Below, one piece after another: positions 6,455-56,794 of a stretch of 64,000 nt of DNA (positions within the stretch are counted from its first letter, which is position 1; every line of letters starts with the position of its first letter). Origin of the DNA: Candidatus Woesebacteria bacterium. Its GTDB lineage: Bacteria > Patescibacteriota > Microgenomatia > UBA8517. Location: positions 628,549 to 692,548 of the forward strand of contig CP058602.1 of NCBI GenBank assembly GCA_013426185.1, given 5' to 3'. The notes below the pieces were generated by a model, which saw only the letters and a program-made list of their open reading frames with translations, made no database searches and was not told the origin of the DNA. Both the position numbers and the translations under genes were made by a program.

Positions 6455-7014
6455 GCTAGAATCTTTCGGCAGCCTTTCCTTATACTTGCTTGTGAGGATT
6501 GATCTAAGTCAAAAATTTAACTCAAAAATTAAAACTCAAAAGTTAAAAATATAATTCAAAACTTAAAAATCAAAAGTCAAAAATTAGATTACGGATTACA
6601 GAATACAGATTAGATAACAAAATTCCAAATTACAAATTACAAACTACAAACAAATTCCAAGCTCCAATAAACAAACAAATTACAAAAATTAAATTCTAAT
6701 TTCTAATTTCTAAATTCTAAACCCTGAACCAGAATAAATTCGATTCAGGGCAGGCAAATTCCAAATTACAAACAAATAAATTCCAACTTTTAACTTTTAA
6801 CTTTGAACTTTTAACTATTTATTAATTTTGCTTTCTACTTACTACGTTCTACTTTCTACTTGCATTCCTTGCATAATACATAATACAAAATACTAAATAC
6901 CAGCTTTTGACTGGCTCCGATGTCCGATGTCCGACATCCGACGGCCGATGTCTGATGTCCGACGTCTGATGTCCGAATTCTTTTAACTTTTAACTTTTAC
7001 TCTTTTACCCAATA
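6455..7014. repeat. Dispersed AT-rich repeat family, copy R1 (inverted relative to R2/R3); includes a 7-bp tandem tract (tccgatg-like x9, 6916..6978) and the hairpin ccctgaacc…gattcaggg
   Basis: Reverse complement of 6640..6900 matches 33800..34080 at most positions by eye. The hairpin at 6721..6749 is matched by 33962..33990. The heptad tract is matched in reverse complement at 52210..52260. Confidence 0.7.
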
Positions 7015-7989
7015 TTATTCTCCAACATTAAATTTGGCAGAAGGCGTAGAAGTAGGGGTGTTTGTTGAATTCAGAAATTCGAAGCTCGAGGTCAATCCAG
7101 GCACTAAATTCTCAAAACCAGCTTCTCCTCTTGAATAATCTAAAATAAGGACTTTTTTATTAGTATCTGGATCTTTAAAAACAAAAAACACCGGGCCTCC
7201 TTCAACTTTTGGATTGTAAGATATCAAATCACGAGAACCAATTTTTTCATCAACAAACGAATTTTTGATATCTGCATAAGTTATTACAGGATTAAATTTA
7301 CTCGCCTCTTCTACCAAGATCTCTATTAAATCTTCGGAGCTTAAGACAGGCAAGACTTTTAGTTCAAGCATGGTTTTATTATCTTCTCCTGCCAAGCTAA
7401 AAACTAACAAGTCGCTCTTATTGGTTGGTATTAGATCGGGAGGATATTTTACAATGAAAGAATCACCTCGATAACTAGCCCAATTAGTAGTTAATTTTTC
7501 AAAAGAAATGGGTGTGGGAACAATAACAGCTTCGTCAGACTGATTGGTCTGAAGGGATGGAGTAACAGCCTTCTTTAAATTCAACCTACCACTTTTCCAA
7601 CCACTAATTAAATAAAGACCTAGTCCGAGAACAGAGGTTGCAAACAGAAGTAATGCTAGGGTAAATATAATTTTCTGGTTTTTATCTCTATCTAAAGTAT
7701 TGTTATCTCCTGAAACGTTGGCTTGCTGAGAAACATAATTAACCGCAACAAATGACTCTCCAACTTTATTTTCGGATTGTAAATTTTCAACCGGAACAGG
7801 TGTTGGTTGCTGACCTTGCGGAGAAGCTGCGGTTGTTTTTACTTCAACTGGCTGAGTCGTTTGATTAGAGGAAACAAAAGGCTCATTTTGATTGTTTTCT
7901 TTACCAAGAGACTCAGGGATAGAATTATTTGCACCACCAGAAGAGCTTGCTAAATTCTGATTTTCATCCATATTTATATTAAAACACAA
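7015..7989 (-). CDS. Hypothetical membrane-anchored protein (N-terminal S/N/Q-rich low-complexity region, one TM, C-terminal ectodomain)
   Basis: 324-aa ORF. Hydrophobic segment IIFTLALLLFATSVLGLGLYLI. No recognisable catalytic motif. Confidence 0.5.
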   Translation of the reverse strand: MCFNINMDENQNLASSSGGANNSIPESLGKENNQNEPFVSSNQTTQPVEVKTTAASPQGQQPTPVPVENLQSENKVGESFVAVNYVSQQANVSGDNNTLDRDKNQKIIFTLALLLFATSVLGLGLYLISGWKSGRLNLKKAVTPSLQTNQSDEAVIVPTPISFEKLTTNWASYRGDSFIVKYPPDLIPTNKSDLLVFSLAGEDNKTMLELKVLPVLSSEDLIEILVEEASKFNPVITYADIKNSFVDEKIGSRDLISYNPKVEGGPVFFVFKDPDTNKKVLILDYSRGEAGFENLVPGLTSSFEFLNSTNTPTSTPSAKFNVGE

Positions 7990-22320: not shown

Positions 22321-24300
22321 TTATTGAATAATATCAGTTTTAATAGATATTTTTGGTTGCTCTTGTTGTGTCTGATTAAGTGCCACGTCACTTTTATTTG
22401 ATAATTCTATTGGGTTACTGGTTATAAGTTGATGTTCCTCAGGTGAAGCAACTACTCTAATAGGAGCATGGTGCGGGCCGGCGAAGAAGATTCCCTCTCC
22501 AACATTGGCTGAAAGCAAGAGCTGCTTTTCTCCTTGTGAGAGATAAAAAACTTCACCCACGCGGTCTATAGCAGTTGGCGATTGTTTTAATAGGACTCTT
22601 AGGGCGCTGTTTGTTACAATGGCTTTACCAATATCTTGAGAAAGGAAATCTTCTACATCTTGAGTAATAGTTGTTAATCCTAGGAAGTATTTTCTTGCTC
22701 TTTTAACAACGCTCCATAAAAACTGGGCTGAATCTTCATATCTCATCATATGCCAGGCTTCGTCAACAATTAGAATTCTTCTTTTGAGGTTTCTTTGTAC
22801 ACGAGTCCAAATAAAATCAAGAATCATAAACATAGCAATAGGGCGAAGAGCCTCTTGCATATCTTTAACTGAAAAAACTGTAAAGGGATTATTGATGTCT
22901 ATATTTGTTTGTTTGTCGAAAATGCCCACAAAACTTCCTTTGACAAATCTTTCTATTCTTGAAGCAAGATCAAGCGCATCTTGAGTTTCCATACCAATTA
23001 ATGTTTTATAAAGATCTTCCATAAGGGGGGGTTCTTTTTTTTGGGTACTAGGATCTTGGGTTATACCCTTTGCGTGGTATGTTGCCACTATGGCGCGGTC
23101 AAGAAGGGCTTCTTTGATAGGGTCAAGCTTCCCCATAATAACTTTAAAGAATGAATGCAGAGTGAGAATTTTTAAGCCTAGTTGATTTTCTCCCTCTGTG
23201 TAAACTTGAGAGAGATCAAAAGGATTAATCTTTGAGGGAGAGTTGAAAGAAAAGGAAATATATTCTCCTCCTACCGCCTCGCAAAGAGGTTTGTATTCTG
23301 CTTCAGGATCAAGAATGATTACTTCGGTTCCAAGCATTAAACTTCTAACAGACTCTAGTTTTACAAAGTATGATTTTCCTGCTCCAGAAGTTGCAAAAAT
23401 TGTCATATTTGAATTTTCAAGAGAAAATCGGTCAAAGATAATAAATGAGCCGTTTTGTGAATTAATGCCATATAAAACACCTTCATCTGATGAAAGTTCA
23501 GCTGATGTTAAAGGAAAGGTAGTAGCAAGAGAGGTTGAATCCATGTTGCGGGTTATTGCTAGTTTGTTAAAGCCGAAGGGAACTGTGGTTAAAAAGCCAT
23601 TTTCCATATCAAGTGTTGCTTTTTTGGCGATAATCATCAACGAGCCAAGGGTTGACTCTACCTGTTTTGTAATATGATCTAATTCTTCTATGGTCGCAGC
23701 TGGTATGGTTATGTAAAATGCAAACTCAAAAAATCTTTCAGCACCTTTTACTAATTGTTCTTGGAGGGTAAGAGCGTCCTCAAGTTTTGCCTGGGTGTTG
23801 GGATCAATTACCTTACCTCTTTCGATATCGGTTGCAATTTCAGCTTCCATTTCAGTAATTTTTCTTCGCAAATCGTCAAGAACACTTTTCCCTTCGATAG
23901 GATAGATATAGAAGGAAATATCAAGAGAATTATTAAAGTTAATTATGGGTTCAAGCCAACCTGGGCTGACAAAGCGTGGATAACCTGAAACAAAGATAGT
24001 TCGAAAATAAGTGTCGTTGATTTTAATATAATCAAAGTCGGTTTCAATAATTTTGGGAGCGATAGCATCAATCAATTCGACCTTTTTGGTAAAAATATCA
24101 ATACTGGGATTACTTATTTCCGGCTTTTCCTCAGTTGATTTTACCGTTGAATCCAAATTTAAATCTTTTACACTATTTTCTTTATTCTCGACTGGTTGAA
24201 GATTGTTTGGTCCATAAGTAGGCTCTGGCGTTTGATAGAGAACTTCTTGATTATCTTTTTTTGTTTCTTCTTTGTTTTTTTTCTTTAAGATGTTAAACAT
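22321..24300 (-). CDS. VirB4/TrbE/CagE-family type IV secretion ATPase (ATPase body)
   Basis: Walker A FATSGAGKSYFVK. Walker B RILIVDEAWHMM. Conserved TQ motif (LTTITQD). Start taken as the internal MFNILKK methionine rather than the 24366 start that overlaps the upstream ORF. Confidence 0.75.
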   Translation of the reverse strand: MFNILKKKNKEETKKDNQEVLYQTPEPTYGPNNLQPVENKENSVKDLNLDSTVKSTEEKPEISNPSIDIFTKKVELIDAIAPKIIETDFDYIKINDTYFRTIFVSGYPRFVSPGWLEPIINFNNSLDISFYIYPIEGKSVLDDLRRKITEMEAEIATDIERGKVIDPNTQAKLEDALTLQEQLVKGAERFFEFAFYITIPAATIEELDHITKQVESTLGSLMIIAKKATLDMENGFLTTVPFGFNKLAITRNMDSTSLATTFPLTSAELSSDEGVLYGINSQNGSFIIFDRFSLENSNMTIFATSGAGKSYFVKLESVRSLMLGTEVIILDPEAEYKPLCEAVGGEYISFSFNSPSKINPFDLSQVYTEGENQLGLKILTLHSFFKVIMGKLDPIKEALLDRAIVATYHAKGITQDPSTQKKEPPLMEDLYKTLIGMETQDALDLASRIERFVKGSFVGIFDKQTNIDINNPFTVFSVKDMQEALRPIAMFMILDFIWTRVQRNLKRRILIVDEAWHMMRYEDSAQFLWSVVKRARKYFLGLTTITQDVEDFLSQDIGKAIVTNSALRVLLKQSPTAIDRVGEVFYLSQGEKQLLLSANVGEGIFFAGPHHAPIRVVASPEEHQLITSNPIELSNKSDVALNQTQQEQPKISIKTDIIQ

Positions 24301-25003
24301 TTTGATTTTCCTCCTCCTTTTTAGGAACCGGCGGCTTTGAATTAAAAATATTATAGTAGAGATCAATTAATTGGGCTGTAGTTAGCTGTCTTAATGTTAT
24401 ACCCAATCTCCTTGCCTGTCTTATTAAATGATCTCTTTTTGGGTAAAGTGAGATTTTGGCTTTTTTTAAAGCGTAAGATTTTGGGAATGGAAGTTTTTGC
24501 CCTCTTTTTATAATTGTCGAGGCCGATTTGGCTATTCCCATTTCAAGTGGGCTAAAAGGAACAACTATGTAAAAGCTTTTCCCCAATACATTTCTTTTTT
24601 TAATAATTTCATTTACAAAGCTTTTGTAACGACTCATTAAAGAAGCAAGTTTTGGATTTTTAATCTTTTGTTCTGCTGACTCAAGATATTCTATGTATTT
24701 TGAAATATCTTTAATTTGCGAGCGAACAATTATCTGAATTGGGAAAGAAAGCGAGTTTAGAAGCGCAGCATAAGCAAAAATGACTGCTTGTTGTTCTTTT
24801 TCTGAAAGCAAAGAAAAATTAAGAGAAGTTGACTCAAGCACTATTGCAGCTCCGCCATCTTTAAAAAGAACAATATTATCGACAATATCGGCAATGGGTA
24901 GAAAATCTTGAGTAGTAGAAATAATAGGAGTATCGGGCATACTAAGGTAGGGTATTTTTAGAGGTATTTTTTTAATTTTGTCTTTCATATTAGTTAATTG
25001 CAT
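24293..25003 (-). CDS. Protein resembling the N-terminal (CagE_TrbE_VirB-type) domain of VirB4; possible split VirB4
   Basis: Segment …FLPIADIVDNIVLFKDGGAAIVLESTSLNFSLLSEKEQQAVIFAYAALLNSL… resembles the VirB4 N-domain pattern. It lies immediately upstream of, and overlaps, the ATPase ORF in a different frame. Confidence 0.4.
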   Translation of the reverse strand: MQLTNMKDKIKKIPLKIPYLSMPDTPIISTTQDFLPIADIVDNIVLFKDGGAAIVLESTSLNFSLLSEKEQQAVIFAYAALLNSLSFPIQIIVRSQIKDISKYIEYLESAEQKIKNPKLASLMSRYKSFVNEIIKKRNVLGKSFYIVVPFSPLEMGIAKSASTIIKRGQKLPFPKSYALKKAKISLYPKRDHLIRQARRLGITLRQLTTAQLIDLYYNIFNSKPPVPKKEEENQNV

Positions 25004-26042
25004 TTGGTGTTGTTTGCGTTGATTTGGCTCTGATTAATATAGGTGGAATGATTTCTCCTTTTGCTTCAAAAGTGGCAGGTTCAAATTCATAACCTTCTTT
25101 CTCAGTAATAATATCGTATTGTCCGTTGGCAAGCGCGGTGACGATCATAAAGTGGCCGAGTTTATTTGACCTTATAGCACGAACAGGTCGGCCGGCAATA
25201 TCTCTTATTTCAAGTATTGCTCCTTCGATAATTTTTCCATTTTGATCTAACACTTGTCCTGTTATCGTGTTCGGAATGGTTGGTGGAAGTGGAGGTGCTG
25301 CTTCGGCTGAAAACTGAACTTGCTGTGATGCTTTTGGTGGCTCTTTTAGTATAGGAGTAACCTGTTGAAGGGATAAGGAAGGCTGTGCGTTTGGTTGTGT
25401 TTCAGCTATTTTTTCTTCGACAACGATTTTGGGTCTGAACGATTTTGGTTGGGTAGTGGGTGCAACTACTGTCTGAGGTCTAACGGGCGCTTGATTAATA
25501 ACTACTGGAGTGGGAGTAGGAGTAGCAACTTGAGCCTGGTTTGCGGATTGACCTTCTTTGATGACCACATTTCCTTGTCTGAAAAGGCTCAATATTCTTG
25601 AGAGAAAATTTTCCTCACCGCTTTCTAATTTATTAAGAGCTCCCTCGTTTTCAGTTGGCACTTTTTTAAGGTATTCTTCAACTTTTTGTTCAGCTTGTGT
25701 TTGTGGAGCTTGAGCTTGAGCCATCTCTTCGTCTTGAAAGAATTTGTAGCCAGCTTGGTTTTTTTGCCAAAGGTAAATGGTAGGGGAATATACAGAGCGA
25801 AAGAAGGCAATTATCCAACGGCTCAACGGCCTTTCTTCAAAAGGTAAAAATGCAAGAGCTGCTCCAAGCGAAACAGAAAACAAAATTAATGGCCATTTGA
25901 TAAAAGGATGAAGGCCAGTTGAATAGATTAAAAGACCCACTAAAGCTCCACCCCCAAGCTGGAAGAATTGTTTTAAAGTCATATCTCCTACCAATCTGAA
26001 CTGGTAGGAACTTATCTGTTGTGGTATCGGATGAGTCTCCAT
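24990..26042 (-). CDS. VirB3/PrgI-like two-TM membrane protein with Pro/Gln/Thr-rich linker and C-terminal beta-sandwich (carboxypeptidase-regulatory-like) domain
   Basis: Two N-terminal hydrophobic helices (GGGALVGLLIYSTGL…, WPLILFSVSLGAALAFL). Position upstream of VirB4. C-terminal GQVLDQNGKIIEGAILEIRD…GHFMIVTALANGQYDIITEKEGY pattern. Confidence 0.4.
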   Translation of the reverse strand: METHPIPQQISSYQFRLVGDMTLKQFFQLGGGALVGLLIYSTGLHPFIKWPLILFSVSLGAALAFLPFEERPLSRWIIAFFRSVYSPTIYLWQKNQAGYKFFQDEEMAQAQAPQTQAEQKVEEYLKKVPTENEGALNKLESGEENFLSRILSLFRQGNVVIKEGQSANQAQVATPTPTPVVINQAPVRPQTVVAPTTQPKSFRPKIVVEEKIAETQPNAQPSLSLQQVTPILKEPPKASQQVQFSAEAAPPLPPTIPNTITGQVLDQNGKIIEGAILEIRDIAGRPVRAIRSNKLGHFMIVTALANGQYDIITEKEGYEFEPATFEAKGEIIPPILIRAKSTQTTPNAIN

Positions 26043-26084
26043 TTTCAGGTAAAAGGCAAGAGGTAAAAGGTAAAAGTAAAGATT

Positions 26085-26459
26085 TTATATCTTTTCTCTT
26101 GCCCTTTTTCTTGATCCATATAATAATTTTTTGTTCTCAACAATTAGATTTGATACCTCGTTAAAATCATCTTTTCCTATATATTTTAATTCCAGAGATA
26201 TATCAATTAAGACTTCAAGCTCAGTCAAAGAGCCTATTGAGATCGTAAGGAACCTTGAATATTCTTTAGGTTTTTCTTTTATATAACCTTCTACAATATT
26301 GGCAACGACTGATATTGCTGCCCTTCTTATTTGAGGAACAAGGCAGTAAAATTCTTCTTTGGGATAGGAATTTGTGAGGCGGTATATCATTAGAACTAAT
26401 TGTTTTGCTTTTTGATAGGAAATTAATTTCTGATAACTTGTCTTTTGTTGTTTTTCCAT
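26085..26459 (-). CDS. Four-helix-bundle protein (23S rRNA intervening-sequence protein family)
   Basis: Signature YQKAKQLVLMIYRLTNSYPKEEFYCLVPQIRRAAISVVANIVEGY. Flanked on both sides by inverted gtaaaag/ttaaaag-type repeats. Confidence 0.75.
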   Translation of the reverse strand: MEKQQKTSYQKLISYQKAKQLVLMIYRLTNSYPKEEFYCLVPQIRRAAISVVANIVEGYIKEKPKEYSRFLTISIGSLTELEVLIDISLELKYIGKDDFNEVSNLIVENKKLLYGSRKRAREKI

Positions 26460-26544
26460 AGTATTCCTTTTAACTTTTAACTTTTACCTACATATAACTT
26501 TACCCCGTGAAGAGTCTTGTGCAACCCCTCAAAGGTTTTCACAG

Positions 26545-28449
26545 GTGGATAAAAATGATATAATAATCCAAATGACAGAAGGAGAACAACAAATACCAAG
26601 GGCTGAATCTGCACCTAAAGGGTTGGTTCCCGAAAAGTACCTTGCTTTTAAAGGGTCACTGTTTTTCGGGACTGAGGATGAATTGAATAGTTTTAAAGAG
26701 GGATTAAAAGATTTATCAGATCCGGAGCGAGAGATTGGGGAAAGAGTTTTGAAGTTGCATAGGATAATGGCAGGTTTATCCACATCTTCGCTACAAGGTG
26801 AATTAGAAGAGATTTATAAGACAGCTAAAGATAACAATTTACCTGATGATAATGAGTTGTTTGTTTTTGCCGCTTCGGTTCTTTCAACCGAGATAGGACA
26901 GAGAATGACATCTTCCGGTCAGGGTCGTGTTGTAGGTGGAGAGGAAAGAGATCCTGCGTTGAATGATTTGCTAGAAATAAATAGACAACTTCTTAAAGCA
27001 ACGACAGGGCAGTTGGAATTACAAAAACAACAAATGGAGTTATTGAGGCGCTCTGGTTTTTCTGGCTTTGTTTCTGCAATGCAAGCAAGAGCGGGTATAA
27101 ATGTCCAGCAGTTTGATACAGAACCTCCGGTTTGGTATGACAGACTTTCTGATGAGTGGAAAAGAGTTGTTAGAACAAATCTGGGCATTTTGATGGGGGC
27201 TTATCTAAAGTTCAGATCGCCTGGCCAGGGGGCGGAATTGATTATAAAGTCTGAAGATATTCGTATCGAGAGGGAGGCCTTGGCTTTTATGTGGGAGAAT
27301 CTACCTGGTTTTAGGATGACCATTGCTACTATTGTTTCTGAATTGTTTGAGGATAGCGAGGGTAAGATGGTGCTCACCAAAGATGGTAAAGACAAATTAG
27401 CAGACACTCCTGCTTATATATCTTCTTTATTGGCGAGATTAAAGAAATATTTTTCAGAAAATCCCGATAGTCTTATGTTGTATTCACAAACTCTTGGGCC
27501 TGAAGATATAAACCCTGATGTTGCCGCCCGATTTGCTGTTTCTGCTGCCTTTAATTTGCTTTATTTGGGTGGTGCTTTTGAATCTGGTGATTTGGGTAAA
27601 GGCCTAAAGGATTCTTATTCTTTTAATCCTTCTGTGAGGACTTTTTGTTTACCTCGAGATCAGGCAAGGTCAAAATACATTTCAGGTGAAGAAGATATAA
27701 TTGGAACAGATGAGGCATGGGGGGGTAAATTGGGAGAGTGGTTTGCCGAGAGAATTAGGCACAAACCCCAATTTAAGCAAGACTTTTTAAACAACAAGGG
27801 AATAACTAGGCTTATGCCTCAAAGATTAATGTATAGTTTGTTTGATTTAACTTACTTTAAAAATGGAGAAACCCTTTCTAAAGCATTATTGTCAATTTTG
27901 TCTCCTGAAAATAGAAGAGAGATTTCAGGTATGGTTGACTATACAGATCCCAACCTGGTTAATTTTAGAGACCTCAAGTATCCAGAGCTTTGGGGCGGAT
28001 ATTCTGATTTAATGGATTCTGCTTTTAAGGTCTATCAGGCAATAATTGGTAAGGCGGACAAGGAATTTGACCGGCAGGCTCTGGCCAACTCTCTTTCAAA
28101 GTTGAGAAAAGATCCTACTTTGAAGGGTATCTATACGGGAGAAAATGGTGAGTGGGTGGTATTAGCCGCTTTGACCTCTCTTCTTGGCGGTCCTAATTTG
28201 TATAGTTCTGAGATACTTTTAAGATTGCCGGATGAAAGTTATGATTATTCGGTTTGGGAATGGCTTGATGATGACAGAGTTTTAGCCGCCTTGCCGAGTG
28301 GGGCAAGAGAAAGGATTTTTAGAGCTTTAAACGCGAAAAATCTAGATTCTACTGTTGATGCATTTTCATCTTTATTTAGCGGCTCCTTTTTGGGTAGAAG
28401 AGAATCTTTAAGAAGGAGAATAAGAAAGGAACAGAAAAGGTGGCGTTAG
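26545..28449 (+). CDS. Hypothetical 634-aa protein on the strand opposite to, and embedded within, the T4SS-like cluster
   Basis: Long ORF with no TM and no recognised motif. C-terminus Arg-rich (RRRIRKEQKRWR). Confidence 0.5.
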   Translation: MDKNDIIIQMTEGEQQIPRAESAPKGLVPEKYLAFKGSLFFGTEDELNSFKEGLKDLSDPEREIGERVLKLHRIMAGLSTSSLQGELEEIYKTAKDNNLPDDNELFVFAASVLSTEIGQRMTSSGQGRVVGGEERDPALNDLLEINRQLLKATTGQLELQKQQMELLRRSGFSGFVSAMQARAGINVQQFDTEPPVWYDRLSDEWKRVVRTNLGILMGAYLKFRSPGQGAELIIKSEDIRIEREALAFMWENLPGFRMTIATIVSELFEDSEGKMVLTKDGKDKLADTPAYISSLLARLKKYFSENPDSLMLYSQTLGPEDINPDVAARFAVSAAFNLLYLGGAFESGDLGKGLKDSYSFNPSVRTFCLPRDQARSKYISGEEDIIGTDEAWGGKLGEWFAERIRHKPQFKQDFLNNKGITRLMPQRLMYSLFDLTYFKNGETLSKALLSILSPENRREISGMVDYTDPNLVNFRDLKYPELWGGYSDLMDSAFKVYQAIIGKADKEFDRQALANSLSKLRKDPTLKGIYTGENGEWVVLAALTSLLGGPNLYSSEILLRLPDESYDYSVWEWLDDDRVLAALPSGARERIFRALNAKNLDSTVDAFSSLFSGSFLGRRESLRRRIRKEQKRWR

Positions 28450-33773: not shown

Positions 33774-33775
33774 GA

Positions 33776-34146
33776 GGGGAATTGGTCGAAGCTAATCGGA
33801 AGACTGTATTTAGTATTTTGTATTATGTATTATGGGAAATCCAAGTAGTAAGTAGAACGTAGTAAGTAGAAAGCAAAATTAATAAATAGTTAAAAGTTCA
33901 AAGTGCAAAATTCAAAGTTGGAATTTATTTGTTTGGAATTTGTAATTTGGAATTTGCCTGCCCTGAACCGAATTTATTCTGGTTCAGGGTTTAGAATTTA
34001 GATATTAGAATTTAGGATTTGGACCTTGTAATTTGGAGCTTGGAATTTGTTTGTAATTTGTATATTGGAATTTGTGATTTAATTCTATAATCTATAATCC
34101 AAAATCTATAATCTAATCATCAAGTTTTGATTTTGAGTTAATCCGT
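33776..34146. repeat. Dispersed AT-rich repeat family, copy R2 (inverted copy of R1; same orientation as R3)
   Basis: Matches the reverse complement of 6640..6900 over ~280 bp. Contains the perfect 9-bp-stem hairpin ccctgaacc(n13)ggttcaggg at 33962..33990. Confidence 0.7.
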
Positions 34147-34148
34147 CT

Positions 34149-34472
34149 CTATTCAAGAAAATTTATCCTTAATTCTAGAAGTTTAATTCCAAAGAAGTTC
34201 TCAAGTATATAAATTATAGCGAAAAGAGAAAGAAGAATGACTAGTCCAATGACAGCGTTGGTTATTTTGCTTTTTGCTGATTCGATGGCTGCTTTATCTC
34301 CTCCTGAAATAATCCATTGAATAGCGCCCACAATAATTATGGCTACGAAGATAATGGCGCCAACAATAAAACTTAGACTGATTAAATTTGGCAAGAGCTT
34401 GTTAAAAAACTCAGTTCCTGAAAGGTTTCTGACACCTTCTCCTAGAGCTGGATTTTTAATACCTTGGTCCAT
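34149..34472 (-). CDS. Pilin-like small membrane protein, paralogue 3
   Basis: Motif IISGGDKAAIESAKSKITNAVIGLVIL. Confidence 0.55.
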   Translation of the reverse strand: MDQGIKNPALGEGVRNLSGTEFFNKLLPNLISLSFIVGAIIFVAIIIVGAIQWIISGGDKAAIESAKSKITNAVIGLVILLSLFAIIYILENFFGIKLLELRINFLE

Positions 34473-40980: not shown

Positions 40981-41344
40981 TGGTGGAGACGGAGGGATTT
41001 GAACCCTCATCCGAGAAAAAATACCTAAAAACTTCTACAGGTTTAGTCAGTATTGTTTTTTCCTCTGGGATTTACTTACTGACAAGAATTCCCAAAGTGA
41101 GGTTTTAATTTTTGAGCTTTAGCCTGAAAACCAACAAACTAAAGCCGATCTTGACTGGTTTACACCATCAAAAAGCGGTCAAGAAGCACTTTTTGAGATG
41201 CCAACTTAGGCAAACGCGTAAGCGTAGCCGGTTGGAGCGCTAACTTTTACGTTGTCGCTTGTTTTTTTAACCAATTTTTACAAGTTTGGTTAAACTTGAC
41301 CTGCAGTTTTTAAAGTACTTTTTCCGTCGAGACCTGTCGTCCCC
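40981..41344 (-). ncRNA. ssrA: tmRNA (SsrA)
   Basis: Minus-strand 5' end GGGGACGACAGGTCTCGACGG… pairs with 3' end …GGGTTCAAATCCCTCCGTCTCCACCA, forming an acceptor stem with a G3:U70 wobble. Internal tag ORF reads …SDNVKVSAPTGYAYAFA*. Lies immediately downstream of smpB. Confidence 0.8.
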
Positions 41345-48877: not shown

Positions 48878-50334
48878 AAGAATTTGCCGCCAAAGAAAAA
48901 CTTGAAATCGTCGCCTCGCTTTGCGAGGCAAAAACTGCCAAAGAACCTGGCCGAACTGTGTTCGGCGAAATGTTAGATAGAATTGAAAAGGGCGCAGCCC
49001 AAGGAATTTTGGCTTGGCATCCTGATAGACTGGCAAGAAATTCCATTGATGGCGGAAGGATTATCTATCTGCTGGACACAGGAAAACTTAAGGATTTAAA
49101 ATTTCCTACTTTTTGGTTTGATAATACACCACAAGGCAAGTTTATGTTGAATATTGCCTTTGGGCAAAGCAAATATTACATAGATAATCTTTCAGAAAAC
49201 ATTAAACGAGGACACAGGGCAAAACTACGAAAAGGTATTTGGCCAAGCTTTGCCCCTCTTGGATATCTCAACAACCATAAGACAAAAGGGATAGATATTG
49301 ATCAAGAGAAAGCACCGCTTATCAGAAAAGCGTTTGAATTATACGCCACTGGAGAATATACGCTAAAAGCAATTGCAAAAATTTTAAAAGACGCAGGACT
49401 TAGAAGCTACAAGGGCAAGGTGCTTTCTGTTTCCTGTGTCCAGCGAATGCTTAAAAATACGTTTTACTATGGTGTTTTTAGGTTCAATGGCGAAATGTAT
49501 GATGGAAGCCACGAGCCAATTATTTCCAAGAAACTTTTTGATACTATTCAACAGGTAATGAATAACAGAGGCAAGAAAAAGCGAAAAAGAAAACATAACT
49601 TTGCTTTTTCTGGGCTTATGCGTTGCGGAAATTGCGGTTGCATGATTACTGCTGAAATTCAAAAGGGATATATTTATTATCGTTGCACCAAGAAAAAGCA
49701 AAGATGCAATGAAAAGTATTTGCGCGAAGAAAAACTTGTTGAACAGCTAAAAGCAATAATTCAAAAAGTTTCCTTGCCAGATGAATGGGCAGAGAAAATG
49801 TTGGAAGAAATTGAGAAAGAGAAGGAACAGGCCAAACAAGAAACAAAATCACTTGTTCAAAATCTATTAAAACAAAAAGTGGCAATTGAAAGGAAGATGG
49901 ACAGACTGCTTGATCTTTATATTGAAGGCAAGGGTATTGAACCGGAAGAATATCAAGCTAAAAAACAGAAACTTCTTAATGAAAAACTGAAAATTCAACA
50001 GAAGATTAAAGATTTTGAACAAACAGGAAATAATTGGCTCGAACCAATGAAAGAAATGATTTTAGCCAGTAGCCAAGCCAAAATTCTATCGTCGCAGAGC
50101 GACAATTCTCAAATTCGAGCATTTCTAAAAAATATCGGCTCGAACTTTATTTTAAAAGGTAAAAAATTCCAATTTGAAGGGAAAATCGGCTGGCGTGCCC
50201 TTTTAAATTCCCCCCAGAATACCAATTGGCGGAGGGTACAGGATTCGAACCTGTGCCCGCCTGTAAGGCGGAGCGGTTTTCGAGACCGCCGCTTTAGTCC
50301 ACTCAGCCAACCCTCCACTCTTGGCTCCTTTTAA
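48865..50334 (+). pseudogene. Large serine recombinase lacking the N-terminal catalytic-serine segment (likely inactivated integrase of the island); 3' end runs into tRNA-Ser
   Basis: Resolvase-domain remainder …GILAWHPDRLARN…, recombinase domain, Zn ribbon CGNCGCMITAEIQKGYIYYRC, and coiled coil. The reading frame opens only at 48865, so roughly 40 aa including the catalytic serine region are missing. The ORF reads through the tRNA gene. Confidence 0.5.
50227..50316 (-). tRNA. tRNA-Ser (anticodon CGA), with CCA encoded
   Basis: Manual fold: acceptor GGAGGGT/ACCCTCC, anticodon stem GCGGT/ACCGC, loop CUCGAAA, long variable arm CCGCC…GGCGG, T-arm ACAGG-TTCGAAT-CCTGT. Confidence 0.8.
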
Positions 50335-50338
50335 TTAG

Positions 50339-50411
50339 TGCACCTGGGAGGAATTGAACCTCCAACCTTTTGGTCCGCAACCAAACGTTCTATCCGTTGA
50401 ACTACAGGTGC
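50339..50411 (-). tRNA. tRNA, anticodon read as GCG (Arg) by manual folding
   Basis: Acceptor GCACCTG/CAGGTGC, D-arm GTTCAACGGATAGAAC, anticodon stem TTTGG/CCAAA, loop UUGCGGA, T-arm GGAGG-TTCAATT-CCTCC. Confidence 0.65.
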
Positions 50412-50466
50412 GAATGAAACAAGAACTACAAACTAGTTTTCCCGCCAGTTTACAATAATTCTTTTT

Positions 50467-50982
50467 TTATCTATTTTGCATTTTGGTCGAGAACCAGCCA
50501 GCCAGTTTTTCAAGTGAGGAAGGAGGAATAGGTTGTTTAACAACATAATTTTTCAAAACAGATTCTATTTTCTCTTTGTCTTTTTTCTCTGTCACAAGCT
50601 CCATTTTCCCCGGTATAAAGTTAGTTCCCAAAATAAGCTTGTTGTAATCTTTTTCTTCTTCTATCCAAAAACTAATAATATTTTCCCAGGGAATGATGTT
50701 GTCTTTTATTCTCACTCCAAAGTTGGTTATTTTGTACTCAACTTTCTCAGGTTCTACATTGTGCAAGATAAAATAAAGGAAAGACAAAGCTATTAAAAGT
50801 ACAACAGGCACCCACCCTTCCGCTATAAAAATAATAAGGCTGATAACTGCCAAAACCGCGCCTGAATTAAGATAAAATTCTTTGCTTTTCTTTTCAAAGG
50901 GCCTAAGGTAAGCTTGCCAAGAGAAAAACACTTGTTCTTGAACAAGCTTTGGTTCTTTTTTTTCTGGGACAGGCATTTTCAT
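50467..50982 (-). CDS. Hypothetical membrane protein (two TM plus C-terminal soluble domain)
   Basis: 171-aa ORF. Hydrophobic helices AVLAVISLIIFIAEGWVPVVLLIALSFLYFIL. Confidence 0.45.
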   Translation of the reverse strand: MKMPVPEKKEPKLVQEQVFFSWQAYLRPFEKKSKEFYLNSGAVLAVISLIIFIAEGWVPVVLLIALSFLYFILHNVEPEKVEYKITNFGVRIKDNIIPWENIISFWIEEEKDYNKLILGTNFIPGKMELVTEKKDKEKIESVLKNYVVKQPIPPSSLEKLAGWFSTKMQNR

Positions 50983-51011
50983 CTAACAAAATTATATCAG
51001 ATTTATCCAAA

Positions 51012-51040
51012 TTTACCTAAGGAGACTCTTCTGCTATAAT
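51012..51040 (+). promoter_or_regulatory. Candidate sigma70 promoter for tRNA-Ser(GCT)
   Basis: TATAAT at 51035..51040, 10 nt upstream of the tRNA 5' end. Weak -35-like tttacc 17 bp upstream. Confidence 0.3.
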
Positions 51041-51049
51041 TGCTTTATT

Positions 51050-51135
51050 GGAGGTGTCGCCTAGTGGTCGATGGCAGAGGTTTGCTAAACCTCGACCCCA
51101 AAAGGGTCACGTGGGTTCGAATCCCACCACCTCCG
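51050..51135 (+). tRNA. tRNA-Ser (anticodon GCT)
   Basis: Acceptor GGAGGTG/CACCTCC, anticodon stem GAGGT/ACCTC, loop UUGCUAA, long variable arm, T-arm GTGGG-TTCGAAT-CCCAC. Confidence 0.8.
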
Positions 51136-51139
51136 CTTT

Positions 51140-51571
51140 ATGAATAACAATCTGATGCTTGTTGGGGGAGCTGTTGTCTTTAAAAGGGCAAATAATGGCC
51201 GTGTGGATTGGTTCTTGGTTGAGGAAAATAGCAAGGGTTGGGAAATTCCCAAAGCTGTTGTGAGAAAAGGTGAATCGTCTGTCAGGGCGGTTTTGCGGAC
51301 AATGGGGGAGCAAGCTGGTATGAGTTGCCGAGTTTTAGAAGAGGTGGGTAGGATTGAGGATAATCTTGAGGTTAATGGTAAAAAGACTTCCCGAAGGATT
51401 ATTTATTATTTGGTCTTGGGTAGAACTGGTGGTGAGGCTTTGGGTTTTGACAGCTCTGCTTGGCTTAATCTTAATTCGGCTTTAAAAAGAGTGTCTTGGG
51501 AGAAAGAGAAAATGATTTTAAAAAAGGCTAAGCTTGAGTTTGAAAAGTGGCTTTCAAGACAAAAGAAATAG
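51140..51571 (+). CDS. NUDIX-like hydrolase (degenerate Nudix box)
   Basis: 143-aa ORF. Segment KGESSVRAVLRTMGEQAG partially fits the GX5EX7REUXEEXGU Nudix signature. Confidence 0.4.
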   Translation: MNNNLMLVGGAVVFKRANNGRVDWFLVEENSKGWEIPKAVVRKGESSVRAVLRTMGEQAGMSCRVLEEVGRIEDNLEVNGKKTSRRIIYYLVLGRTGGEALGFDSSAWLNLNSALKRVSWEKEKMILKKAKLEFEKWLSRQKK

Positions 51572-51580
51572 CTTTTAGTG

Positions 51581-51668
51581 GGGTGGGATCGCATAGTGGA
51601 CTAGTGCGCACGCTTGGAGAGCGTGTGTCGCCGCAAGGTGACCGAGGGTTCGAATCCCTCTCCCACCG
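51581..51668 (+). tRNA. tRNA-Ser (anticodon GGA)
   Basis: Acceptor GGTGGGA/TCCCACC, anticodon stem CACGC/GCGTG, loop UUGGAGA, long variable arm, T-arm GAGGG-TTCGAAT-CCCTC. Confidence 0.8.
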
Positions 51669-51686
51669 CTTAATTTCCCTTACCTT

Positions 51687-51806
51687 GGTGGGTTGGCCGA
51701 GTGGTTTATTTCGAACGAAGTGAGAAACAAGCTTTGTTTTTTAAGCGGAGCGAGAAAAACAAAGCTTATGGCGCAGGTCTTGTCCGCCATTGGCGGATCA
51801 AGTTTT
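51687..51806 (+). pseudogene. Partial/disrupted copy of tRNA-Ser(TGA): 5' part, then a 60-nt insert containing a 12-bp hairpin, then D/anticodon-stem remnant
   Basis: ggtgggttggccgagtggttta and …atggcgcaggtcttg… are identical to the intact gene at 51912. The insert carries aagctttgtttt / aaaacaaagctt inverted repeats. No T-arm follows. Confidence 0.5.
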
Positions 51807-51843
51807 AGGAGGGATTGATATCTGTTGTTTTGGCTTTTACATT

Positions 51844-51868
51844 GGTGGGTTGGCCGAGTGGTTTACTG
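51844..51868 (+). pseudogene. Second partial copy of the tRNA-Ser(TGA) 5' end (acceptor plus D-arm only)
   Basis: ggtgggttggccgagtggtttac matches the first 22 nt of the intact tRNA, followed by unrelated sequence. Confidence 0.5.
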
Positions 51869-51911
51869 CGAAGCAGCAAAACACGAGGCTAATCTGAATA
51901 GCTTTTTCTTT

Positions 51912-51995
51912 GGTGGGTTGGCCGAGTGGTTTATGGCGCAGGTCTTGAAAACCTGTGGGAGCAATCCCTCAGAGGTTCGAATCCTCTACCCACCG
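51912..51995 (+). tRNA. tRNA-Ser (anticodon TGA)
   Basis: Acceptor GGTGGGT/ACCCACC, anticodon stem CAGGT/ACCTG, loop CUUGAAA, long variable arm, T-arm AGAGG-TTCGAAT-CCTCT. Confidence 0.8.
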
Positions 51996-52005
51996 CCTCT
52001 CTCTT

Positions 52006-52077
52006 GCCCCCGTAGTTTAATGGATAAAACGAGGGCTTCCGGAGCCTTCGATGGAAGTTCAATTCTTCCCGGGGGCA
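52006..52077 (+). tRNA. tRNA-Arg (anticodon CCG)
   Basis: Acceptor GCCCCCG/CGGGGGC with discriminator A, anticodon stem AGGGC/GCCTT (one G-U pair), loop UUCCGGA, T-arm GGAAG-TTCAATT-CTTCC. Confidence 0.7.
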
Positions 52078-52094
52078 CAGTGAAGCTGGGAGGC

Positions 52095-52657
52095 TAGTCT
52101 TCGCCTATGGCAGAGTTGGTCAAAGCTAGTCGAAGCTAGTATTTTGTATTATGTATTATGCAGGGAATAAAGGTAGGAAGTAGAAAGTAGTAAGTAGAAA
52201 GCAACGGATTTCAGATATCGGCTATCGGACGTCGGCTATCGGATGTCGGACATCGGAGCCAGTCAAAAGCTAGTTAAAGTTGGTATCAAGCATCACGAAG
52301 CAGGTGTCGAGTATGGTAATAGGTAAAAGGCAAGGGGTAAAAGTTAAAAGAATTCGGATTTCAGCTATCAGCCGTCAGCTGCCGGAGTTGATTGCTATCT
52401 TAATTCCTTAAATCATAAATCAAAATTCTATAATCAAGGTTTTGAATTTTGACTTTTAAGTTTTGAGTTATATTTTTTGACTTTTAAGTTTTAAGTTTTA
52501 ATTTAATTTGTGATTTGAGAAATTGGATAATTGTAGAATTGTTTAGAATTTAGGATTTAGAAATTAGAATTTAATTTTTGTGATTTGTGATTTGTAATTT
52601 GTTTGTAGTTTGGAATTTGTGATTTGTATATTGTAATTTGTAATTTGTCTTACATCT
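52095..52657. repeat. Dispersed AT-rich repeat family, copy R3 (same orientation as R2), ending at the dnaG start codon
   Basis: Shares agtattttgtattatgtattatg…gtagaaagtagtaagtagaaagc and the …tagaatttaggatttagaaattagaattt…tttgtaatttg… tail with R1 (reverse complement) and R2. Contains the reverse complement of the tccgatg heptad tract. Confidence 0.65.
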
Positions 52658-54454
52658 ATGGATCAGGTAGAAGAGATTAAGCAAAAGACAGACATTGTTA
52701 ATATTATCTCAGAAAGGCTTGAACTTAAAAAAGCAGGCAGGAATTACAAGGCTTTATGCCCCTTTCATCAGGAGAAAACTCCTTCTTTTATGGTTTCACC
52801 CGAGCTTCAGATTTACAAGTGCTTTGGTTGTGGCGAATCAGGAGATGTCTTTTCTTTTCTTGAAAAATATGAGGGAATGAGTTTCTTTGAGACGCTTCAA
52901 TACCTGGCTGATAAATTGGGAATTAAACTTAAAAGGGTAAATCTGGGAAGAGAGGACAAAAGAGAGCGAATCTTGTCTTTAAATGAATTGGCAGCTAAGT
53001 TTTATAATTACGTTCTTTTGGAGCATAAACTGGGGAAAAAGGCCCTGTCTTATCTGACTGAGAAAAGAGGGCTTAAGCTTGAAACTGTTAAAAAGTTTAA
53101 TTTAGGTTTTTCTCCCAAGAATAGTCAGGCTTTGGTCAACTTTTTGATTAAAAAGAAAGGTTTTACAAAAGAGGAGTTAATCGAATCTGGAACTTTTTTC
53201 CCTCGTGCGGGCGCTTTGCAGGATCGTTTTTATGGCCGTGTGATTTTTCCTCTTTATGATCATCGAGGCAGAACCGTGGGCTTTGGGGGTAGAATTTTGC
53301 CACCTGAATTTGGTGGAGAAGAAAATAAAGATCAAGCTAAATATATAAATTCTCCTGAGACTTTGGTTTATAAAAAATCGCACACCTTGTTTGGCTTAAA
53401 TCTTGTTAAAGAGGAAATTAAAAGAGAAAAGGAAGTGGTGATAGTCGAAGGAGAACTAGATATGATTTCCTCTTATCAAGCAGGAGTTAGAAATATAGTG
53501 GCTGTTAAAGGTTCTGCTTTGACACAAGAGCAGGCCTCTTTGCTTTTAAGGTTTGCTGAAAAGTTTATCTTTGCCTATGACACAGATAACGCTGGAATTA
53601 ACGCTATTAAAAGGGGAGCCGTTGTTACCCAAAAGTTAGGAGCTCAAATAAAAGTGGCGCGTCTTGGGAGTTATAAAGACCCAGATGATATGGCAAGAGC
53701 TAATCCTGAAGGTTTGAAGAGAGTGGTTCAAGAAGCAGTTCCTGTTTGGGACTTTTTGATTGATTTGTCTTTTGAAAAAAATGACGCAAAAACTGGAGAG
53801 GGTAAAGCCAAGATTAGTCAAGAGCTAGTGCCTATTTTATCAAGTATCGAAGACAAGATTGTTCAGGCACATTATGTTGAAGTTTTGGCTGAAAGACTTT
53901 CGGTTCCTTCAACGGCTGTTTTTGAAGAGGTTTCAAAAAAGCAAGGCGAGGCTGTTTTGGAACAAAAAGTAGTTACAGAAAAATTTGCTCCTAAGAAAAG
54001 TAGACGTGAGCTTTTGGAAGAAAGATTATTGGCTCTTCTTTTTCAAAGTGATGTGGAAGGTATTTTAGATGAGTCATTAGATTTATTTTTGCAAAGTCGA
54101 GTTCATAAAAAGTTAGTGGAGGAGTTAAGGAAATTCCTTAGCGAGAGTAAAAAATTTGATCCTGCTTTGTTTTTAAAGGCTCTTCCTTCTGAAATTGCAG
54201 GTCATTTTTCAGAATTAATGCTTTATGAAGCTGGTTTTGATTTTGAGGATAAAGAGCGTTTAGAAAAAGAAATTGCTTCAATTAAGAAAGATCTTAAACA
54301 AGAGATGATTAAAGAAAAATTGATTGATATTCAAGAAAAGATGAAGCAAGCTGAGGCAAAGAGGGATGTTGAGGCTTTAAATTTGCTTCGTAAGGAATTT
54401 GCCCAAAAAACAAGTGAGCTTTCGGCTTTGAATAAAGAGAATGGCGTTGTATAA
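52658..54454 (+). CDS. dnaG: DNA primase
   Basis: CHC2 zinc finger (CPFHQEKTPSF…CFGCGESGD). Toprim region (VVIVEGELDMISS … FAYDTDNAG). Followed by rpoD. Confidence 0.85.
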   Translation: MDQVEEIKQKTDIVNIISERLELKKAGRNYKALCPFHQEKTPSFMVSPELQIYKCFGCGESGDVFSFLEKYEGMSFFETLQYLADKLGIKLKRVNLGREDKRERILSLNELAAKFYNYVLLEHKLGKKALSYLTEKRGLKLETVKKFNLGFSPKNSQALVNFLIKKKGFTKEELIESGTFFPRAGALQDRFYGRVIFPLYDHRGRTVGFGGRILPPEFGGEENKDQAKYINSPETLVYKKSHTLFGLNLVKEEIKREKEVVIVEGELDMISSYQAGVRNIVAVKGSALTQEQASLLLRFAEKFIFAYDTDNAGINAIKRGAVVTQKLGAQIKVARLGSYKDPDDMARANPEGLKRVVQEAVPVWDFLIDLSFEKNDAKTGEGKAKISQELVPILSSIEDKIVQAHYVEVLAERLSVPSTAVFEEVSKKQGEAVLEQKVVTEKFAPKKSRRELLEERLLALLFQSDVEGILDESLDLFLQSRVHKKLVEELRKFLSESKKFDPALFLKALPSEIAGHFSELMLYEAGFDFEDKERLEKEIASIKKDLKQEMIKEKLIDIQEKMKQAEAKRDVEALNLLRKEFAQKTSELSALNKENGVV

Positions 54455-56470: not shown

Positions 56471-56585
56471 AATCAGAGTTAGTAAGATATTCTTTTTCCA
56501 TAGGCTTTGAAAACGGAACGAAAGACTTGTTCCGCTAGCTTATTTTATCTTAAAGACGCTCTTCTATCAAGTCTAAAAAATGATA

Positions 56586-56710
56586 TAATATTAAAAGTTA
56601 AAAGTTAAAAGTTGAAATTTGTAATTTGTAACTTGGAGTCTGTTTGTATATTGGGATTTGTGGTTTGGAATTTGTTTAGAATTTAGGATTTAGAAACTAG
56701 AACTTTAAAA
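56586..56710. repeat. Dispersed AT-rich repeat family, short copy R4 upstream of tRNA-Asn
   Basis: aaagttaaaagttaaaagttgaaatttgtaatttg…gaatttaggatttagaaactagaac shares the aaagttaaaag, tttgtaatttg and tagaatttaggatttagaaa modules with R1-R3. Confidence 0.5.
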
Positions 56711-56718
56711 CAAGATAA

Positions 56719-56794
56719 TCCCCGGTAGCTCAGCTGGTAGAGCGCGCGGCTGTTAACCGCTAGGTCGAAGGTTCGAGTCCTTCCCGGGGAGCCA
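56719..56794 (+). tRNA. tRNA-Asn (anticodon GTT), CCA encoded
   Basis: Acceptor TCCCCGG/CCGGGGA, D-arm GCTCAGCTGGTAGAGC, anticodon loop CUGUUAA, T-arm CGAAG-GTTCGAGT-CCTTC. Confidence 0.75.

Follow-up and report, generated by a model that had tools for sequence, protein, structure and literature searches.

Intervening sequences (IVSs) that bear an open reading frame (ORF) have been known in 23S rRNA genes since the early 1990s, with examples carrying an S23p ORF in Leptospira, Brucella and Xanthomonas. RNase III cuts the IVSs of Leptospira and Salmonella as well as that of Coxiella. The Coxiella 23S IVS, located in helix 45 in C. burnetii, is 428 nt long and has a 28-bp terminal stem, within which RNase III cuts, and an S23p ORF that is preceded directly by tandem GACAGAT heptamers, present two to three times and in variable copy number; the cut removes the Shine-Dalgarno sequence (PMC4990558). 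ORFs of the same family, PF05635, have also been reported in rRNA insertions of the Candidate Phyla Radiation (CPR) (PMC11270868) and in cas loci (PMC3936711), and the Avd protein of diversity-generating retroelements (DGRs) is homologous to PF05635 proteins (PMC10053308). Here, we report the analysis of a cassette with a four-helix-bundle gene of this family, located at 26043..26494 on the minus strand of a 64,000-nt stretch (hereafter the window, meaning the whole stretch that was analysed) of Candidatus Woesebacteria bacterium (CPR, Microgenomates; assembly GCA_013426185.1, contig CP058602.1, positions 628,549 to 692,548). The window has 36% G+C, and a second assembly, GCA_020725745.1, carries the same locus. 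The cassette lies directly upstream of the PrgI-like first gene of an operon that resembles a type IV secretion system (T4SS). In close relatives it is present or absent at exactly this site, or an unrelated cassette with arms of its own takes its place there, and we consider it probable that it is a selfish, exchangeable element of the IVS type, seated in the leader of about 22 nt that runs from the promoter to the PrgI-like gene of the T4SS-like operon.

The cassette consists of a promoterless PF05635 gene bracketed by inverted arrays of 7-nt repeats. A preliminary description, made from the sequence alone, had named the gene as one of the four-helix-bundle (23S IVS) type, and the 124-aa product bears this out, with matches to PF05635 (23S_rRNA_IVP; E=6.8e-31, 107.1 bits against a cut-off of 33.8) and to TIGR02436 'four helix bundle protein' (99.6 bits against a cut-off of 24). 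By sequence similarity, the nearest solved structure is 2GSC, XCC0516 (E=2.6e-19). The motif RxxxSxxxNxxE(G), which is conserved in PF05635/S23p proteins (Zhang et al. 2014, PMC3936711), was found in the protein as RxxxSxxxNxxE (RAAISVVANIVE). Within our alignment A2, the family motif residues R46, S50, N54, E57 and G58 are invariant. Lin et al. 2006 is reportedly also a source of this motif. Among the 14 contigs that carry the protein, the eight shown encode it without any amino acid difference although their DNA differs silently; the near-identical strains L001-L008 yielded no information on the cassette flanks. A phmmer search of the window returned no second four-helix-bundle gene.

Two other assignments of the protein were rejected. 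Avd of DGRs shares the homologous four-helix-bundle fold, and weak matches to PF22296 bAvd (28.4 against a cut-off of 40) and NF033474 (26.5 against 80) were obtained, but no reverse transcriptase adjoins the gene and template/variable repeats are lacking, inverted heptamer arrays being found instead. A role in a defence system was likewise set aside, PADLOC having given a negligible AbiB match (E=7e-4).

When compared with the ORF-bearing 23S IVSs, the cassette agrees in protein family and in size (452 bp here, 428 nt in Coxiella; size class of about 0.4-0.8 kb), in an ORF that is held within terminal inverted repeats with a stem of 20-30 bp and encoded on the host-transcript strand, and in having tandem heptamers in the arm directly upstream of the ORF with the ribosome-binding site inside that arm; a sporadic distribution, which suggests mobility, is also common to both (PMC4990558). 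It differs in its host site, which is the mRNA leader of a T4SS-like operon and not helix 25 or 45 of 23S rRNA, and in offering direct population evidence of empty sites and replacement; RNase III cleavage is established for the IVSs and would apply to the cassette by analogy. The window has no rRNA gene, so the cassette has no helix 25 or 45 setting, and an Rfam scan of the cassette region gave no matching family and only chance-level hairpin matches. The proposal that IVS architecture occurs here in a protein-coding cluster is thereby upheld. The cassette is an IVS-type S23p element in a form that resides in an mRNA leader and is polymorphic within populations.

Evidence for the cassette as a discrete unit comes from orthologous operons. 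A metagenome scan with the PrgI-like protein yielded 80 operons, 68 of which had enough upstream sequence; the site is occupied by a four-helix-bundle gene in 16 of these and vacant in 52. At the empty site of L160, our empty-site reference, the sequence reads ...CTTCACGGGGTAAAGTTATAATGTC/ATG, and that of the window reads ...CTTCACGGGGTAAAGTTATATGTA[arm-ORF-arm]TGAAA/ATG, the slash preceding the PrgI start codon. A motif of the form GTGAAAA-N8-22-TTGNNN-N15-18-TANNNT was found upstream in 51/52 empty and 15/16 filled loci (66/68; window and L097-L176), and the insertion always lies between its conserved -10-like element and the PrgI ATG, such that the ATG follows the end of the motif at a median distance of 22 nt where the site is empty and at 454-512 nt where it is filled. 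Some of the empty loci have as little as 4-9 nt between the -10-like element and the ATG, which suggests leaderless or near-leaderless mRNAs.

Two pairs of loci share one genomic background and hold different cassettes, here termed A and B. Between the window and L099 the left flanks are 99.5% and the right flanks 95.9% identical, and between L100 and L101 the corresponding values are 99.8% and 99.6%; in both pairs the cassettes, at about 62%, are unrelated. The converse is seen across backgrounds: the window and L100, both with cassette A, agree at 67% in the left flank, 87% in the right flank and 96.7% in the cassette, and L099 and L101, both with cassette B, at 67%, 88% and 98.1%. The two backgrounds are 13% apart in PrgI and have different upstream genes, and each occurs with either A or B. 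Cassettes A and B are not alignable with each other, the cassette B protein is 36% identical to the cassette A protein, and the arms of cassette B are GAACAAA/TTTGTTC. Loci with A, with B and with an empty site occupy scattered positions on the PrgI tree.

The alternation of A and B within near-identical flanks therefore indicates a shuffling of the two cassettes between the two lineages, and in showing both absence and replacement it agrees with the earlier proposal that the gene is carried as a cassette. Loci L099/L101, with flanks as in the window and a different cassette, served as references for the cassette limits. The breakpoints between A and B fall at the outer ends of the arms, immediately after ...GGGGTAAAGTTA and immediately before the ATG of PrgI, and the limits were set at 26043..26494 because the breakpoints fall there; these are nearly equal to the limits of 26043..26500 in the preliminary description. 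Gain or exchange of the cassette could proceed by a dedicated mechanism, or the conserved promoter and the 5' end of PrgI could serve as tracts for recombination. At the PrgI site of L171 (about 2150-2317), a truncated four-helix-bundle ORF of about 42 codons is followed by CTTTGTACTTTGTA-type heptamers and looks like a decaying cassette.

The arms themselves consist of (GGTAAAAG/GTTAAAAG)n on the 5' side of the gene, with the reverse complement of this array following on the 3' side. The 5' arm stops 6 nt before the ATG and holds a likely Shine-Dalgarno sequence, AAGGA; the 3' arm, which reads CTTTACTTTTACCTTTTACCTCTTGCCTTTTACC on the gene strand, starts a few nucleotides past the stop codon and finishes 4 nt before the PrgI ATG. 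Tandem Repeats Finder (TRF) detected (AGGTAAA)x5 at 26047..26080 and (CTTTTAA)x2.9 at 26467..26486, with a period of 7 on both sides, and by an inverted-repeat finder the arms were reported as inverted copies, 20-26 nt long and 81-90% complementary (I1, I2, I4). With RNAduplex, the two flanks of 46-48 nt gave -25.6 kcal/mol; for flanks of 80 nt the duplex had z=-2.5, and 5/100 dinucleotide shuffles were equally good. The local inverted-repeat score of the window locus is 30, compared with 21 and 31 for the 95th and 99th percentiles of control genes. Taken alone, the evidence for a stem from the window sequence is borderline, and the stem is accepted because of covariation in orthologues and the family-wide survey described below, not on a single-sequence fold. 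An alternative local hairpin, formed by the last ORF codons with the 3' arm, is missing from the orthologue consensus, and the long-range stem is therefore the better conserved of the two.

Homologues at 50-66% identity sit at the same place upstream of PrgI, and the gene beyond the cassette varies among them (AbiEii, HepT/MNT, HicAB or others). The arms occur in every homologue in a version particular to it, e.g. GAGTAAAAG/CTTTTACTC and GTATAAG/CTTATAC. RNAalifold was run on nine orthologous cassettes with 50-66% amino acid identity to the window protein, plus one strain variant at 97%, and predicted, unprompted, a long-range helix between both flanks. In this helix 83.7% of cells are paired and 11/15 pairs have changed on both sides; pairing as high was reached in 0/500 shuffles, and controls in which the alignment was slid gave 37-50%. 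The complementarity of the arms is preserved by compensatory change, in line with the claim that the two flanks are inverted copies of each other.

The same anatomy was then found to extend well beyond the PrgI site. The survey sampled 80 loci with PF05635-type genes, at one genome per species, from CPR, Bacteroidota, Thermodesulfobacteriota, Planctomycetota, Acidobacteriota, Chloroflexota, Proteobacteria and other phyla. In most cases a short tandem array precedes the gene and the reverse complement of that array follows it, with a unit that varies by locus (GTGAGCA, GGGTCAG, AATAGTG, CGGTATA, GTTTAGA, CAGGAGA and more). Scored for local inverted repeats, the 80 loci reach a median of 30 and 291 neighbouring control genes one of 15 (Mann-Whitney U test, p=1e-27), with 71% of the loci above the control 95th percentile and 46% above the 99th; against a refined set of 270 control genes, 75% are above the 95th percentile. 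The top-scoring controls were mostly extra four-helix-bundle genes or their neighbours, the sole other outliers being two DUF559 genes. The arrays have a period of 7 in 31/43 cases and mostly of 8 or 9 in the remainder, and the arms, with a median length of 30 nt, finish about 19 nt before the ATG and start again about 15 nt past the stop codon. Of the 40 loci that were scanned with Rfam, none is located in rRNA. In the sampled loci, the stem-enclosed anatomy is the rule for the PF05635 family outside rRNA.

The surveyed genes are co-oriented with their host genes and tightly packed among them: the upstream neighbour is on the same strand in 70/75 cases (p=2e-7) and the downstream neighbour in 62/74 (p=2e-3), compared with 174/269 control pairs, and spacers are about 53 nt. 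Arms and proteins also go together, since pairs of loci with common arm 6-mers have a median protein identity of 62% against 45% for the others (p=2e-10), also across phyla; L059 and L062, for example, belong to different phyla, are 81% identical in amino acid sequence and both have CAGGAGA arms. As a separate observation, small DUF559-like genes (Vsr-type endonuclease fold) were seen with inverted CCCCTCCCC/GGGGAGGGG hairpin repeats on both sides, and may represent a second family in stem-enclosed cassettes.

The arm unit of the cassette is also dispersed in the window. The preliminary description had stated that the flank motif recurs in a repeat termed R3, and the similarity does exceed the AT-rich background: GGTAAAAGGTAAAAG with two or fewer mismatches occurs 11 times in the window against 0.5 expected, always in intergenic arrays, and 52322..52350 matches the complement of the cassette 3' arm at 27/29 positions, including an aperiodic GGCAAGRGG core, with 0 such matches expected. 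Within the R3 copy that lies at 6.5-7.0 kb, a further array near-matches the cassette 5' arm plus adjoining bases. Elsewhere in the window, the arm unit is confined to intergenic strings of heptamer arrays (6455..7015, 33775..34150, 52100..52660 and 56560..56720). R3 is made of consecutive units, namely GTATTAT, GTAGAAA, CGGATGT, GGTAAAAG/GTTAAAAG, TTTTAAG, TTTAGAA and TTTGTAA; its copies at 6 kb and 33 kb align over about 300 nt, and the 52-kb copy has the modules reordered. The idea that R3 represents nested palindromes or a graveyard of cassette arms was rejected, as the modules are not mutually complementary and therefore do not form nested hairpins. When surveyed loci were searched for 11-mers from their own arms, further occurrences within the same 6 kb were seen in 20/57 loci, compared with 6% when the arms were taken from other loci, with a couple of the recurring sites abutting the cassette, which may be extensions of the arms. 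Inverted pairs of the arm heptamer unit that enclose no ORF were found 1-2 kb from a four-helix-bundle cassette in L021 and L065, and also in L038, L052 and L064. These ORF-less pairs resemble the 'paired regulator sites' of Geobacter metallireducens. As a side observation, the window contains a tmRNA gene, whose tag is DNVKVSAPTGYAYAFA, as well as seven clustered tRNA genes, four of which are tRNA-Ser, and several of the tRNA genes directly adjoin heptamer-array regions.

Dispersed heptamers are known from other bacteria. Short tandemly repeated repetitive (STRR) sequences are repeats of heterocystous cyanobacteria. In Geobacter metallireducens, inverted pairs of heptamers or octamers within operons are presumed to be regulator sites and have stayed unexplained (PMC2700814), and in Xanthomonas about 186 GGGAATC arrays include 70 inverted pairs (PMC4692102). 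The STRR, Xanthomonas GGGAATC and Geobacter MTYCTGA repeats agree with the arms in a period of 7 with typically 3-5 units, in their intergenic or intra-operon location, often as inverted pairs, and in being transcribed (PMC4692102, PMC2700814), and the Geobacter unit (TTCTGA/TCCTGA) is the arm unit of cassettes L038 and L074. They differ in having been read as G-quadruplexes or regulator sites, with no link to PF05635 (PMC4692102, PMC2700814). A similar arrangement, in which a small gene lies between inverted short repeats that are also dispersed as solo copies and ORF-less inverted pairs (R3; L021, L065), is found where repetitive extragenic palindromic (REP) sequences or bacterial interspersed mosaic elements (BIMEs) accompany a REP-associated tyrosine transposase (RAYT) as REPtrons, and where MITEs (miniature inverted-repeat transposable elements) accompany a parent transposon. 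Unlike these, the cassette encodes neither a Y1 nor a DDE transposase but a protein with no known catalytic activity, and the cassette repeats are tandem 7-8-nt units and not single palindromes. In the literature, of which our coverage was incomplete, we found no report that links heptamer repeats to PF05635 or describes a stem-enclosed cassette outside rRNA.

The anatomy suggests a way in which the cassette could be tolerated by its host operon. Transcription of the operon from the conserved motif would begin near the 5' arm, and the two arms would then pair as a duplex of about 20-26 bp around the ORF, masking the ribosome-binding site of the cassette. By analogy with the IVSs of Coxiella, Leptospira and Salmonella, RNase III would cut the arm stem. 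The cut would free the cassette RNA, and the 5' end then remaining on the PrgI mRNA would be short and near-native, as in empty operons; the insertion would therefore do little harm to the host operon.

A number of results weigh against a selfish element that is processed as RNA. The motif at 26497..26543 would act as the operon promoter, an assignment made by conservation alone, and it was not picked up by a consensus promoter scan. Within the window, to which this result is confined, there was no RNase III signature. Folding of 26040..26505 had been proposed as a check in the preliminary description, and the outcome was divided: the minimum free energy (MFE) structure of the 466-nt RNA is indeed closed by a 10-bp helix between the flanks, but the fold has z=-1.15, which is not significant from a single sequence. 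In the survey, the arms are without sign of selection on the sense RNA, for arm mismatches comprise 46 G/T and 44 A/C, i.e. there is no G:U strand bias, and the sense duplex is the more stable in 29 loci and the antisense duplex in 26 (p=0.57). The contigs shown with the identical protein, and those with close relatives of cassette B, all present one context; among them there is no near-identical copy of cassette A or B at another genomic site, and transposition to new sites is therefore hypothetical. Relatives of cassette B at 53-60% identity are likewise upstream of PrgI, so that the A and B lineages both keep to this place down to 50-60% identity, which could reflect a functional tie to the operon, and in CPR genomes such genes are also present at other junctions of the same operon; taken together, a functional tie is possible in place of pure selfishness.

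The strongest rival explanation puts the action of the arms on DNA. They would serve as terminal inverted repeats, or as cruciform or hairpin sites, for a trans-acting recombinase or transposase or for a template-switch in replication, and this arm-driven process would insert, excise and exchange the cassette, RNA processing being incidental. Since there is neither an excess of G:U nor an energy advantage of the sense strand, a role of the arms at the DNA level stays a serious rival, though on balance we regard it as unlikely; the lack of strand bias fits a symmetric DNA constraint or frequent homogenisation of the arms. Presence, absence and replacement with sharp limits at the arm ends also fit, as do the joint movement of cassette and arms across phyla, the MITE/REP-like ORF-less pairs and solo arrays near 20/57 loci, and the inverted heptamer pairs of Geobacter operons and of Xanthomonas, where there are 70 (PMC2700814, PMC4692102). 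Yet no transposase or integrase adjoins the cassette among its neighbours, though a transposase may lie elsewhere in the genome, and neither a clear target-site duplication at the junctions, as judged against the L160 empty site, nor a near-identical copy at a second site was found. The strong co-orientation with host genes would be unexpected for random insertion unless selection filters the outcome, and the exchange of A and B is explicable by homologous recombination via the promoter region of about 110 nt and the PrgI 5' end. An integron cassette is similar in that a promoterless, exchangeable ORF associated with an imperfect inverted repeat sits just behind a resident promoter; its attC is solely at the 3' end, whereas two arms bracket the ORF here, and neither an integrase gene nor attI was found among the neighbours of the cassette.

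A second rival, which we find rather improbable, holds that the gene is not part of a mobile element but an optional accessory or regulatory part of the PrgI-TraC-VirB4 operon of CPR. The arms would be cis-regulatory, setting translation of the gene and how stable the operon mRNA is or in what stoichiometry it occurs, for instance through binding of the protein to its own repeats, and cassettes A and B would be old alleles swapped by homologous recombination. Orthologues of A (50-66%) and B (53-60%) do stay upstream of PrgI, the likely ribosome-binding site does lie inside the 5' arm, and the arm sequence is recognisable to about 55-60% protein identity, which suggests sequence-specific recognition. 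In 6/80 survey loci, all from CPR, the gene is at junctions of the PrgI operon; additional cassettes occur between the PrgI and TraC-like genes and between the TraC-like and VirB4 genes, which overlap or abut in the window, and several loci have a second cassette between PrgI and the TraC-like gene with arms that are different again. Against these stand the 52/68 orthologous operons that lack the gene, with states scattered on the tree, and the 74/80 surveyed genes that occur in unrelated contexts with the flank anatomy unchanged. Members of the family in rRNA and cas loci (PMC4990558, PMC3936711, PMC11270868) and the degraded remnant at the PrgI site of L171 are also difficult to place in such a scheme. 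That the complementarity of the arms is a meaningless chance product of AT-rich low-complexity or slippage-prone repeats is most improbable, since the 36% G+C, the weak full fold, the 5/100 shuffles that match the duplex and the frequent heptamer arrays in intergenic regions of the window are outweighed by the covariation in orthologues, the family-wide excess, the lineage-specific units that are always matched by their own complement and the 27/29 match in R3 with its aperiodic core.

The remaining features of the locus are as follows, with coordinates collected in Table 1. The four-helix-bundle gene is on the same strand as the T4SS-like operon and 42 nt upstream of the PrgI-like gene, and a scan found no terminator downstream of it. 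A divergent ORF of 634 aa without family match starts at 26545; the neighbours of the cassette thus comprise the PrgI-like, TraC-like and VirB4-like genes and ORFs of 634 and 533 aa without a Pfam match. In related genomes, toxin-antitoxin modules (AbiEii/DUF6922, HepT/MNT and three HicAB pairs) lie directly upstream of the cassette, at the position that the 634-aa ORF of no assigned family takes in the window. The VirB4/TraG-like ATPase of one related operon (L177 5143-6384, 1191 aa product) contains an intein with a LAGLIDADG endonuclease domain.

Table 1. Coordinates of the cassette, its surroundings and comparable features in other loci (window positions unless a locus is named).
Feature	Location	Strand	Basis or remark
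Promoter-like motif	26497..26543	-	GTGAAAA 26542..26536; -35-like TTGCAC 26524..26519; -10-like TAAAGT 26502..26497
Entire cassette of 452 bp, with four-helix-bundle ORF between 5' and 3' arms	26043..26494	-	Alignment with L099/L101 and L160 empty site
5' arm, GGTAAAAG TTAAAAG TTAAAAGG	26466..26489	-	Inverted-repeat finder, TRF, folds
Four-helix-bundle protein gene, 124 aa, PF05635/TIGR02436	26085..26459	-	Profile matches
3' arm, CTTTACTTTTACCTTTTACCTCTTGCCTTTTACCT, five 7-nt units	26047..26080	-	Inverted-repeat finder, TRF, RNAalifold
Alternative local hairpin, last ORF codons (AAAGGGCAAGAGAAAAG) with 3' arm	26051..26107	-	Repeat I3, local fold -19.1 kcal/mol
PrgI-like first gene of T4SS-like operon (PF12666), directly downstream of cassette	24990..26042	-	
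TraC-like gene, second in T4SS-like operon	24293..25003	-	
VirB4/TraG-like gene of T4SS-like operon	22321..24366	-	
Solo copy of cassette arm within dispersed repeat R3	52315..52350	+	
Solo arm-like array of the 6.5-7.0 kb R3 copy, GTAAAAGTTAAAAGTTAAAAGAATTC	6980..7010	-	
tmRNA and tRNA gene regions	40981-41344; 50227-52078; 56719-56794		
Other operon-junction cassettes with own inverted arms	L009/L166 5484-5932; L178 4509-4910; L180 4390-4743; L085 3934-4318; L029 3001-3321; L087 3001-3327		
ORF-less inverted pairs of cassette arm unit	L021 4397-4480; L065 1410-1508		
DUF559-like gene in hairpin repeats	L080 3891-4245	+	
DUF559-like gene in hairpin repeats	L018 5087-5462		Reverse-complement coordinates of locus
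Toxin-antitoxin modules upstream of related cassettes	L009 2965-3893; L013 233-2772		

A homopentamer of four-helix bundles is the form ascribed to S23p proteins, and for the cassette protein it would follow from the sequence similarity to 2GSC. A wider and more tentative proposal is that PF05635 genes and the dispersed heptamer repeats of bacteria (STRR-like repeats, Xanthomonas GGGAATC, Geobacter pairs and R3) make up one system, comparable to RAYT and REP. The ORF-bearing cassettes would be its autonomous members, with the 23S IVSs as only the rRNA-resident subset, and the ORF-less pairs and solo arrays would be derived from them. In the manner of TRAP, three to five tandem units of the arm, e.g. 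GGUAAAAG, would be recognised by the pentamer that the same cassette encodes, and if the proposal is true, binding of the arms by the protein would control stem formation, processing or spread.

The IVSs of rRNA are apparently a special case of a larger set of stem-enclosed cassettes that reside in ordinary transcription units of many phyla, and the PrgI locus provides clean population evidence for the gain, loss and swap of such a cassette and its arms as a unit. Through their arms, these cassettes are linked to the dispersed heptamer repeats, for which the over-representation seen in bacterial genomes has no accepted explanation. PF05635, a widespread family of unassigned function, is thereby placed in a concrete and testable setting.

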